40,469 nucleotides of DNA from Escherichia phage ECP1: the sequence record KY979108; one strand, 5' to 3'. Below are positions 7,574-9,281 of the stretch, piece after piece; position 1 is the first letter of the stretch, and every line of letters starts with the position of its first letter. Both the position numbers and the translations under genes were made by a program. The notes below the pieces were generated by a model. It made no database searches and was not told the origin of the DNA. It saw only the letters and a program-made list of their open reading frames with translations.

Positions 7574-7688
7574 ACACCGAACCTGCCCCTTTGGAATGGG
7601 CCTTTGAGGATACCAGTTAGTGCTGGCGAGCCTCGGTGGGCTGGTTTCCTGTGCGGCAAAGGTTCATTTCAAAGAGTAGGTACACGCT

Positions 7689-8186
7689 ATGAAATCATTA
7701 ACCCTCTTCAATCAACCAATTCGTATCGGTGAAGATGGCATGATCTGCCTCACTGATATGTGGAAAGCCAGTGGTAAAAGTGAATCTGAATCGCCTTACC
7801 ACTACCTGCGAAACAAGCAGACCAAAGAGTTCTTAGCCGAGCTGGAGAAAAACCACGAATCTGTGGTTTTTACTGAGCGCGGTGTACACGGTGGAACATA
7901 TGGCGGGAAGTTTGTTGCTTACGATTATGCGGCTTGGTTAAACCCCGGGTTCAAGTACGCGGCCTATAAAGTCCTCGATGACTACTTCACCGGAGAACTT
8001 CAGCATCGCAACAGCTTAAGTGCGCAGCTCAACATGAAATGTCATGAGTTTGACCAGAAGAAAGACATGGCGAGCTTCTGCGGACAAGGGCTGGCAGCAT
8101 GGCGCTATACGAAGCCAGTGTTGGTCGCTGAGATTAACTCCCTGGCTAACCAGCTGCAGATTACGATCCCCGGGCTTCCGGGATGA
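7689..8186 (+). CDS. KilA-N domain protein
   Basis: N-terminal region resembles KilA-N DNA-binding domain pattern. Confidence 0.5.
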   Translation: MKSLTLFNQPIRIGEDGMICLTDMWKASGKSESESPYHYLRNKQTKEFLAELEKNHESVVFTERGVHGGTYGGKFVAYDYAAWLNPGFKYAAYKVLDDYFTGELQHRNSLSAQLNMKCHEFDQKKDMASFCGQGLAAWRYTKPVLVAEINSLANQLQITIPGLPG

Positions 8187-8452
8187 GTGATCGTGTTATT
8201 GAATGCGCCTCCAGAGCGGGGCGCGACTTCTCAGAGTTCATGAAAGGCGAGAAGGGCATGATGGAAGCATTGGCCTCGGTGGATGAGTTTGGCGAGCAGC
8301 TGCGCCTCAACGGCTGTGTCAATCATCACTTTGTTAGCTACATGATGCGGAACTCGATCATGCAGGCATTCATGGACATGGCAAAAGCCGAGAGGAAAGA
8401 AGAGCGCCGGCATAAGCGAGCGGAAGCAAAAGCAAAAGCAAAAGTGAAGTAG
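8183..8452 (+). CDS. Hypothetical protein
   Basis: ORF coupled to the KilA-N gene; lysine/alanine-rich basic C-terminus. Confidence 0.4.
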   Translation: MSDRVIECASRAGRDFSEFMKGEKGMMEALASVDEFGEQLRLNGCVNHHFVSYMMRNSIMQAFMDMAKAERKEERRHKRAEAKAKAKVK

Positions 8453-8613
8453 CCATTACAAAGCTCACCTGCTGGTGGGCTTGATAATGGTTATCCCCAC
8501 AAAAGGATATTCTGTCAAATATCCCGAGTAGGGTATAGACATAACAGCATTCATTCACGGGTTGCCTGTAATAATGCTATAAATGATTACCTTAAAAATA
8601 AAATGGTGATCAT

Positions 8614-9090
8614 ATGCAACGCTTCGTTGAGTCAATCAGAAGGTCTCTACAAACTCAAAATTGGTTTGCTGCAATTTTTATGGCACTAGCTATGCCAGAT
8701 ATTTGTGGGGCTTTGGAAGATCCAGATGCAAATGTCGGAGAAAGGTATAGGGATTGGTTTGCTAGGTATTTAGCACCGAAGTATACGCGTCGCTATGTAC
8801 AGTTTACGGCTCAGGACTGTTACAAATTTCGATGCAAGTGTTTGCATCAGGGATTGGCTGTTCGAGATAATAACGAAAAGTTTTCTTTGACTCCGCCGAT
8901 TCCGCCACATCAATTTCATTTAAACTCATATGATGGCGTAATTCAGTTACAAATCGATCTTCTTTGCGAGGATATATGCTTAGCTGTTGAGGAGTGGGCT
9001 AGAGATGTTGAGGATAACAATGAAGTGCAAAATCGCATATTAGAACTAATCAATATTCATTTCCCTCAAGGGTTTATAGAGTTTCGTTGA
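8614..9090 (+). CDS. Moron-encoded hypothetical protein (158 aa)
   Basis: Distinctly AT-rich ORF relative to flanks, with its own upstream promoter-like region and downstream terminator; no recognisable family. Confidence 0.55.
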   Translation: MQRFVESIRRSLQTQNWFAAIFMALAMPDICGALEDPDANVGERYRDWFARYLAPKYTRRYVQFTAQDCYKFRCKCLHQGLAVRDNNEKFSLTPPIPPHQFHLNSYDGVIQLQIDLLCEDICLAVEEWARDVEDNNEVQNRILELINIHFPQGFIEFR

Positions 9091-9124
9091 AACATATCAT
9101 ACAGCATTTTATTTCCTTCCTATG

Positions 9125-9152
9125 AGCCACTAGCTTCCGCTGGTGGCTTTTT
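9125..9152 (+). terminator. Rho-independent terminator after the moron gene
   Basis: Hairpin AGCCAC...GTGGCT followed by TTTTT. Confidence 0.55.
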
Positions 9153-9281
9153 AATGCGCATCGCACGCGCAAATTTTACTCAGAATCTTTCAGGATGACC
9201 CTTGAGGAACCGGCTGGCGTCGGAGCCTTCTGAGGGCTGGATTTCCTGTGCGACAAGGTTCATCACTAAAAGGTAGCTCCG

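Follow-up and report, generated by a model that had tools for sequence, protein, structure and literature searches.

A predicted pseudoknotted leader RNA conserved upstream of late-operon accessory genes in lambdoid phages

Introduction

Phage P22 produces a small non-coding RNA of 89 nucleotides (nt), P22F, that was detected by small-RNA sequencing and by reverse transcription polymerase chain reaction in P22-infected Salmonella, and that also accumulates in outer membrane vesicles (Noncoding RNA 2026;12:21, PMC13397905). It was one of ten read-coverage peaks, was listed with "no known function", and lies on the + strand at P22 positions 21,301-21,389, ending 6 nt before the rha ATG (PMC13397905). 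The P22F report gives no fold, family, pseudoknot or pairing with a Shine-Dalgarno (SD) sequence, and makes no link to cassettes carrying KilA-N, Ant, HNH or TerB genes. We examined a repeated element within the DNA of Escherichia phage ECP1 (sequence record KY979108, 40,469 nt; this whole stretch is called the window), an HK97-like lambdoid phage in which one copy of the element (copy A) precedes a KilA-N gene and another (copy B) precedes an HNH gene. P22F is identical to window positions 7596-7675, in copy A, and to the copy in locus L007; its 5' end falls inside the 5' strand of the long stem P1 described below, and it omits the hairpin H0, the strand that would pair with the SD sequence (anti-SD strand) and the first 7 of the 18 nt of that P1 strand. 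P22F and the element are one locus and one sequence family, and RNA from the element accumulates during infection. When the literature was searched by keyword and by exact sequence, only PMC13397905 was found to concern the element, which represents a new and well-supported family of structured RNAs in classic phages, seen before only as an uncharacterised P22 read peak.

Results

The initial annotation of the window had pointed to two near-identical strings of about 40 base pairs (bp), each ending about 20 nt before a start codon. Both strings were found, with their starts displaced by 1-2 nt from the coordinates first given: copy A, GAGCCTCGGTGGGCTGGTTTCCTGTGCGGCAAAGGTTCAT, occupies 7628-7667 and ends 21 nt before the ATG at 7689 of a gene with KilA-N and ORF11CD3 domains, and copy B, GAGCCTTCTGAGGGCTGGATTTCCTGTGCGACAAGGTTCAT, occupies 9223-9263 and ends 18 nt before the ATG at 9282 of an HNH_3 gene. 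Their common core, GGCTGG(N0-1)TTTCCTGTGCG (17-18 nt), has 2 exact occurrences in the window compared to 0.00 expected from 100 dinucleotide shuffles. Gapped local alignment of 7519-7667 with 9132-9263 gave a score of 53, far above that obtained for shuffled copy B (16.3 ± 2.2, maximum 27) or for random pieces of the window (16.9 ± 2.4, maximum 26); the likeness thus extends over about 150 nt, rather than 40 bp, and on its 5' side takes in an intrinsic terminator hairpin and another small hairpin. A covariance model search of the window returned exactly two copies, at 7549-7694 (95 bits) and 9154-9287 (130 bits). Each is made up of the intrinsic terminator, the small hairpin H0, a linker (A/C-rich in copy A, where it lies between H0 and the anti-SD strand) and a long stem that stops 18-24 nt 5' of the ATG. 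Copy A is of type 1 and copy B of type 2, with a mean column identity of 76% over the two aligned flanking regions; because they belong to different subtypes, the two copies look like two stacked cassettes rather than a local duplication.

The pattern of compensatory change predicts that the element is a conserved RNA fold of ~140 nt on the + strand, made of a hairpin, a pseudoknot and a long stem and terminating at the SD sequence of the next gene; the suggestion in the initial annotation of a shared regulatory or leader element is borne out to this extent. The parts of the fold are H0, stem P1 (10-18 bp), a short stem P2, two apical hairpins P3 and P4, and a basal helix that pairs with the SD sequence; the loop of H0 forms a pseudoknot of 5-7 bp with a bulge 90-125 nt downstream (Table 1). 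The + strand was fixed from the frequent G-U pairs there and from the better folding of that strand, z for copy A being -3.4 (+ strand) against -1.8 (- strand). Unconstrained ViennaRNA minimum free energy (MFE) folds of both copies gave the basal helix, P1, P2 and the bulge.

The fold model was settled by divergent copies that were found with a first covariance model, and many further variants came from a second scan of viral sequences that was directed at type-3 copies. Alignment A5 was made with a model containing neither P1, P2 nor the pseudoknot, and alignments A6 and A7 with a model of the nested helices from which the pseudoknot was left out. Changes were compared with shuffle controls, which ignore phylogeny, and besides these with slid controls. 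Within the nested helices of A5, 97% of cells were paired and both sides had changed in 14 of 25 pairs (shuffles 3.0 ± 1.3; slid 1-4). For the 107 distinct sequences of A7, with 39 pairs and 94.7% of cells paired, both-side changes were found in 31 of the 39 pairs (shuffles 16.0 ± 2.1; slid 4-13), double changes in 395 cells (shuffles 101 ± 14; slid 12-58), and the covariation score was 0.295 (shuffles 0.136; slid at most 0.046). The slid controls argue for the fold better than the shuffles do, as does the type-4 copy, which differs strongly from the rest. The distant copy at L070:8145-8280, written in almost wholly other letters, keeps H0, a CUGACAU:AUGUCAG pseudoknot, P1, and a P2 formed by AGAAAUAUC:GAUAUUUCU.

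The individual helices differed in the strength of this signal. The H0 stem was 99-100% paired, with both-side changes in 3 of 4 pairs and a pair probability of 0.95 in single-sequence ensembles. P1 was 94-98% paired, with both-side changes in 13 of 16 pairs in A7 (pair probability 0.89), and it shows paired single-nucleotide insertions or deletions (CUUUG:CAAAG, CUUG:CAAG and CUUAG:CUAAG) as well as the exchange of AUG:CAU for GUG:CAC. P2 was 96-99% paired (pair probability 0.82); its pair 81:154 occurs in A7 as GC:61/CG:27/UG:9/AU:5, and its forms, besides that of the distant copy, include AGGA:UCCU, GGCAAA:UUUGCC and GGGGAAA:UUUCCC. The pseudoknot, to which the alignments were not fitted, was 92-95% paired (94.6% in one measurement) and 5 of its 6 pairs had changed on both sides; pair 10:137 is GC44/AU7/UA4 with no unpaired cell, and pair 8:140 is UA24/CG21. 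At least nine matched versions of this loop-bulge pairing were counted by eye, namely UCGCAC:GUGCGA, UCUCAC:GUGAGA, UCACAC:GUGUGA, UCGUAC:GUACGA, UCGCAU:AUGCGA, CCGCA:UGCGG, CGCUC:GAGCG, CGCCC:GGGCG and the one in the distant copy. In the apical domain both sides had changed in 4 of 4 pairs of P3, which is still present in variants without P4; P4 was 88-98% paired, is short and mostly invariant, and its changes were mostly one-sided. P4 has been cleanly deleted in type-3b variants, which supports its being a separate hairpin.

Other pairings and explanations were tried and rejected. A first model, in which a long-range helix of GAACC:GGUUC and CUUG:CAAG closed two hairpins, was overturned by the type-3 and type-4 copies, where the true partner of GGUUCAU is AUGRRCC (with AUG:CAU changed to GUG:CAC), leaving GAACC:GGUUC as a possible alternative helix. 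A nested model derived from MFE structures (CAGGA:UCCUG, CCCUU:GAGGG, GAGG:CCUU) had many mismatches within type 2 and a pairing of only 84%. An "outer" helix between S2 and the leader, considered as an OFF-state rival of P1, had four pairs in common with P1 and is its outward continuation. RNAalifold applied to a plain MAFFT alignment missed P1 because of the paired insertions and deletions. These changes, which break the reading frames between types, together with the fixed distance to the ATG, also exclude a coding explanation.

Searches for relatives placed the element at cassette junctions in hundreds of lambdoid phages and prophages across many Enterobacterales genera, P22 and 933W included. 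DNA like copy A was present in 128 phage records and DNA like copy B in 305; BLAST with the type-4 copy gave no match in the phage collection. A pattern scan of GTDB (one genome per species) returned 70 stretches, roughly half of them from Enterobacterales (Photorhabdus, Yersinia, Edwardsiella, Serratia, Pantoea, Erwinia, Tatumella, Brenneria, Raoultella, Citrobacter and others), the remainder, from unrelated phyla, having matched by chance; overall, the pattern scanning yielded 32 non-redundant copies of the element. Among 5426 complete E. coli genomes, 954 carried type 1 and 880 carried type 2, and a single genome had as many as 10 copies (5-7 type-2 copies in E. coli O157:H7); none of the copies in these genomes carries an RNA annotation, and no RefSeq genome checked had the fold annotated.

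Rfam 15 (4227 models) gave no match at gathering thresholds in the whole window, and neither copy was matched at E<=10 within 7300-9500. In 7 other loci, covering types 1-4, the element was likewise unmatched, and the matches elsewhere in those loci were only to tRNA and STnc100. The known prophage small RNAs (sRNAs) AsxR, AgvB, IsrK, STnc100 and others had no Rfam match on the element, and the Pas sRNAs are located elsewhere, between esterase and holin genes or near Q. Copies of STnc100, an Rfam sRNA, lie just 3' of leader-tciA/TerB cassettes (L196:3285-3457 on the + strand; L004:3723-3925 and 677-872 on the - strand), and these cassettes therefore have structured RNAs on both sides.

Very short contigs attributed to non-enteric organisms also carried copies of the enterobacterial element (L171, L142, L173 and other contigs from metagenome-assembled genomes, MAGs). 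L171 is a Xanthomonas pisi contig of 392 nt that scored 97.8 bits, exactly the score of the POCJ13 ant-type copy, and L142 is a "Candidatus Nanosynbacter" MAG contig whose cargo open reading frame (ORF) begins with the same residues as the window KilA-N protein. Such copies probably stem from enterobacterial prophage DNA that entered as contamination or was mis-binned.

The orientation of the element was constant, and in every case it stood directly 5' of an accessory gene. From 153 extracted hits, 65 unique cargo ORFs were obtained, and in 64 of these the ATG lay 18-24 nt 3' of GGTTCAT; the sole exception, at 33 nt, was a chance pattern match. Every context checked was a late operon. The element lies after Rz in HK544 (before KilA-N) and in Dewey (before HNH), and between R and Rz in 933W (before ant). 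A Klebsiella phage carries it embedded in its tail genes, in front of KilA-N, and in JLK-2012 it follows Q and three tRNAs and precedes tciA/TerB; POCJ13 has two elements, one before ant and one before rha. The genes behind the element are of many kinds (Rha, KilA-N, Ant, HNH_3/AP2, TerB/TciA, glycosyltransferase and several unknown families), and the leader would therefore serve a position or an expression class rather than a single protein.

Cassettes in tandem were seen repeatedly (in the window, L004, L015, L025, L028, L065, L070, L093, L197, L224, L253, L260, L268 and POCJ13), and leader type and cargo reassort: the leader of one HNH-glycosyltransferase pair is of type 2 in the window but of type 3 in L015, from which it looks as if leaders have been exchanged by recombination. 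The presence of the element at every cassette junction, the recurring tandems and this reassortment are what would be expected of a feature acting only as DNA, i.e., a linker or boundary sequence aiding homologous recombination, or a leftover of exchange with no RNA function. We hold such a reading to be highly improbable, since it does not account for compensatory substitutions across 10-125 nt, among them the nine matched loop-bulge pairings, for wobble pairs that are valid on the + strand only, or for the fixed distance to the ATG. The proposal that the repeats are recombination scars at module boundaries holds as to their position at cassette junctions and the shuffling of leaders and cargo, but leaves unexplained the compensatory changes more than 90 nt apart, so that scarring is a side effect at most.

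The 5' position of copy B relative to the HNH_3 gene agrees with the earlier suggestion of a homing-endonuclease insertion site, and the HNH ORF, which overlaps the start of a 486-aa glycosyltransferase gene (TAATG), looks like a free-standing endonuclease gene inserted secondarily between the leader and its original cargo. That the insertion occurred behind a pre-existing leader is suggested by L217 and L219, where the glycosyltransferase (74-82% identical protein) is attached directly to the leader with no HNH between. That the element itself is an HNH target or insertion scar, or else a promoter or operator DNA site for a downstream regulator, is extremely unlikely: HNH genes make up only ~5 of 47 cargo classes and most copies precede other genes, which leaves the homing-site meaning unsupported; no common operator is expected because the cargo proteins are unrelated; no sigma-70-like promoter was found in or just before either copy; and the covariation is of the kind seen in an RNA. 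Scarring by recombination and a homing site are secondary readings at best.

A hairpin followed by a T-run was present in at least 44 of 57 distinct contexts upstream of the element, and the copy A terminator coincides with an annotated rho-independent terminator in HK544. A U run follows H0 itself only in copies of the A type, so H0 is not a terminator family-wide. The fold has no terminator of its own after it, the ORF beginning 18-24 nt on, and no -10 box was seen by eye upstream of the P22F 5' end; the terminator-leader-ORF unit appears to be a promoterless accessory cassette. A highly conserved, pseudoknotted fold inside a long operon flanked by terminators could act as a processive antiterminator or polymerase-modifying RNA like HK022 put or Bacillus EAR, the nascent fold promoting read-through of terminators around the cassettes. 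This we judge very unlikely, since the terminator is upstream of the element and not downstream, antitermination is already supplied in these phages by Q (qut and PR' are annotated in HK544), and no Rfam match of any kind was obtained; moreover, the fold has its 3' end anchored at the SD sequence, a fixed 18-24 nt from the ATG, which indicates translation rather than transcription.

The SD sequence was paired in the MFE structures of both window copies, and over 70 sequences the median probability of its being unpaired was 0.03; the basal CC:GG pairs were kept at 87-95% across the family. The alternative helix GAACC:GGUUC was 99.6% pairable (middle pair AU:50/GC:4), and in its place type 3 has GAGCC:GGCUC and type 4 AGAGC:GCUCU; the P1 segment that this helix would displace carries wobble pairs and a mismatch (pair 69:148). 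A covarying structure, a leader position in the same orientation and, in silico, pairing of the SD sequence with the fold are marks of riboswitches and cis-regulatory leaders, and all three were found. From the observed conservation, fold, in silico SD pairing and genomic association we infer that the leader is, with fair probability, a cis-acting translational gate silencing antirepressor-like, HNH and other accessory genes. Each copy would be the 5' module of a late-operon accessory-gene cassette (terminator, structured leader RNA, ORF), transcribed on the + strand within the Q-dependent late transcript. The pseudoknot would hold the loop of H0 against the bulge of 6 nt that separates P2 from P1, and at the foot of the stem ACC(U)UUU would pair with the SD sequence of the downstream gene; the ribosome-binding site would therefore be buried by default. 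Opening might come about when the anti-SD strand GAACC re-pairs with GGUUC of the P1 3' strand, by RNase processing of the stem, or through a ligand or protein acting on the pseudoknot and junction domain. It is a more doubtful, though possible, extension that the leader is a true RNA switch and a new riboswitch-like class of lambdoid phages, in which a signal picks between the SD-buried fold and GAACC:GGUUC and so licenses the cargo by infection phase; the pseudoknot and three-way-junction domain would then sense a small molecule of host or phage, a protein, or polymerase speed or Q-modification.

Several observations weigh against the gate or against parts of the fold on which it depends. 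Individual basal SD pairs were only 75-95% conserved, and the alternative helix that might open the gate has little independent covariation and is mismatched in many type-3b copies. The heterogeneous cargo hints at no ligand, and no functionally coherent cargo pointing to one was found among the cargo families. The folding energy of copy B alone was not unusual (z = -1.0). P4 is not favoured thermodynamically, and the apical domain (P3 and P4 or an extended stem) may be considered ambiguous because both RNAalifold and the single-sequence ensembles favour an extended apical stem over the P3/P4 three-way junction. Finally, the blindness of the shuffles to phylogeny and the use of the nested-helix model in aligning A6 and A7 detract from the covariation counts.

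The 89-nt P22F RNA found in infected cells and vesicles, with its 5' end within the P1 5' strand, raises the alternative that the element is a processing or stability element or the precursor of a trans-acting sRNA. Its stem would be a substrate of RNase III or RNase E, cleavage would part the accessory mRNA from the lysis mRNA, and a stable P22F-like fragment would be freed, which might be exported or have other RNAs as targets. The copy A duplex, with 18 bp uninterrupted and 6 basal pairs, is near the length of RNase III substrates such as the lambda N-leader and sib sites, for which about 20 bp or more of near-continuous duplex would be expected. We nevertheless consider this reading unlikely by itself: the stems of types 2 and 3, copy B included, are broken by mismatches or bulges, and processing alone leaves the conserved pseudoknot and junction unexplained. 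An sRNA gene would be expected to have its own promoter and terminator, and both are absent; for a trans-acting RNA there is no obvious seed, because the conserved "single-stranded" stretches all pair internally. Processing is compatible with the translational gate, in which cleavage could be the opening step.

Other features of the window were noted. The presence of two glycosyltransferase-like genes (phrog_1579 and phrog_854) between the lysis and terminase genes is unusual for an HK97-like phage; the HNH gene found just 5' of the terminase genes is a second one, of the HK97 gp74 type (Pfam HNH) and distinct from HNH_3. An AT-rich stretch at 8480-9152, between the KilA-N cassette and copy B, contains orf158 (phrog_18591), which had no Pfam or PADLOC match, and has a strong terminator at its end; it looks like a separately acquired moron. 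The KilA-N/ORF11CD3 protein gave a weak match to the PADLOC candidate-defence model PDC-S22 (E = 1e-8, only 30 residues). At 391-497, in or beside ORF 311-907, an iteron-like array (family D1) of TTGTCCAAC(G/A)G with 11-nt spacing in two blocks is probably a replication origin. A further family, D2, with a G-rich hairpin end and TTTTTTTATGG...ATG directly before four tail-region ORFs, is on its sequence pattern a putative conserved intercistronic signal.

Table 1. Positions of the parts of copies A and B and of other features, in window coordinates unless a locus is named.
Feature	Positions	Strand	Remarks
Copy A intrinsic terminator, after Rz	7519-7541	+	Stem 7519-7526 / 7530-7537, then U run; read from sequence
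Copy A hairpin H0	7549-7566	+	AUGCGU-ACCGCA-ACGCAU; loop CCGCA 7556-7560 is the pseudoknot 5' strand
Copy A anti-SD strand	7579-7586	+	ACCUGC 7581-7586 pairs with GUAGGU 7676-7681 (MFE structure)
Copy A alternative pairing	7579-7583 with 7661-7665	+	GAACC with GGUUC
Copy A P1 5' strand	7589-7606	+	CUUUGGAAUGGGCCUUUG; pairs with 7657-7674, 18 bp in MFE structure
Copy A P2 5' strand	7607-7610	+	AGGA; pairs with UCCU 7647-7650
Copy A apical hairpin P3	7613-7626	+	CCAG-UUAGUG-CUGG
Copy A apical hairpin P4	7629-7642	+	AGCC-UCGGUG-GGCU; weakest helix
Copy A 3' bulge between P2 and P1	7651-7656	+	GUGCGG; UGCGG 7652-7656 is the pseudoknot 3' strand, with H0 loop
Copy A P1 3' strand, then SD region	7657-7674, then 7674-7681	+	SD region GAGUAGGU; ATG 7689
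Copy B intrinsic terminator, after orf158	9126-9152	+	Stem 9126-9134 / 9139-9147, then U run; read from sequence; placed as in copy A
Copy B hairpin H0	9155-9171	+	UGCGC-AUCGCAC-GCGCA
Copy B pseudoknot	9161-9166 with 9248-9253	+	UCGCAC (H0 loop) with GUGCGA
Copy B anti-SD strand	9185-9190	+	AUCUUU; pairs with SD AAAGGU 9269-9274; ATG 9282
Copy B P1 5' strand	9192-9204	+	AGGAUGA-C-CCUUG; pairs with 9254-9267
Copy B P2	9205-9209 with 9243-9247	+	AGGAA with UUCCU
Copy B P3	9210-9213 / 9220-9223	+	CCGG / UCGG
Copy B P4	9224-9227 / 9235-9238	+	AGCC / GGCU
L015 stretch compared with the HNH_3-glycosyltransferase region (type-3 leader)	L015:2569-3126	-	
Q	5213-5836		Followed by holin and endolysin
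Rz	7050-7487		Followed by accessory region, then terminase and head genes
KilA-N/ORF11CD3 gene	7689-8186		Accessory region
orf89	8183-8452		Accessory region
orf158	8614-9090		Accessory region; AT-rich
HNH_3 gene	9282-9842		Accessory region
Two glycosyltransferase-like genes	9842-11874		Accessory region
gp74-like HNH gene	11859-12212		Accessory region
Family D2 junctions	20501-20527, 25912-25938, 26574-26600, 30330-30356		

Discussion

The proposed gate would be a common, testable control point for late-operon accessory genes that are poorly understood (Rha, KilA-N, Ant, free-standing HNH, TerB/TciA and glycosyltransferases), some of which are toxic or able to induce prophages on leakage. P22, the 933W and Sakai Stx phages and the HK97-like phages are among the best studied, yet the fold is missing from Rfam. 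The nine naturally compensated versions of the pseudoknot are a ready-made mutational design. Should the leader be a true switch, it would offer a rare case of a sensor RNA carried by phages; should it be a constitutive lock opened by processing, the insulation and timing of promoterless morons would be explained.

IsrK of Gifsy-1 was proposed as an analogy for P22F (PMC13397905). The likeness is that of a prophage RNA just 5' of an ORF and tied to the control of a toxic anti-terminator or antirepressor-type gene; unlike the element, IsrK is in Rfam (where its model does not match the element). The mechanism of IsrK is trans-activation through an sRNA isoform. The RNase III hairpin of the lambda N-leader and the read-through transcripts of T4 e, soc and I-TevI have simple, gene-specific hairpins that bury the ribosome-binding site, and processing or an alternative 5' end opens them, which avoids ill-timed expression. 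The element resembles these in the proposed burial of the SD sequence by a stem in a read-through transcript, and differs in being a multi-helix fold of ~140 nt with a long-range pseudoknot that is reused before dozens of unrelated genes.

Pseudoknotted translational leaders are known from the preQ1-II, SAM-II and NAD+-II riboswitches and from the T4 gene 32 and S15 operators. Like these, the element is a conserved pseudoknotted leader at or including the SD sequence, with a possible alternative pairing; unlike them, it has no sequence or structure match in Rfam and its cargo shares no pathway. The put sites of HK022 are two stem-loops directly after the early promoters in a phage lacking N. 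With put and with Bacillus EAR the element has in common that it is a structured RNA lying close to terminators in a long transcript of a phage or operon, whereas the phages that carry the element have Q, its terminator is upstream, and its fold is tied to the SD sequence.

The cassettes may finally be compared with two concepts of phage mosaicism from the Hendrix laboratory. Morons are in their classical form autonomous units of promoter, gene and terminator placed between essential late genes; the unit described here differs in being terminator, leader and gene, without a promoter and with the terminator upstream of the leader. The lambdoid "boundary sequences" at module junctions are conserved DNA that accompanies mosaic exchange; unlike these, the junction DNA of the element appears to be under selection for RNA structure.

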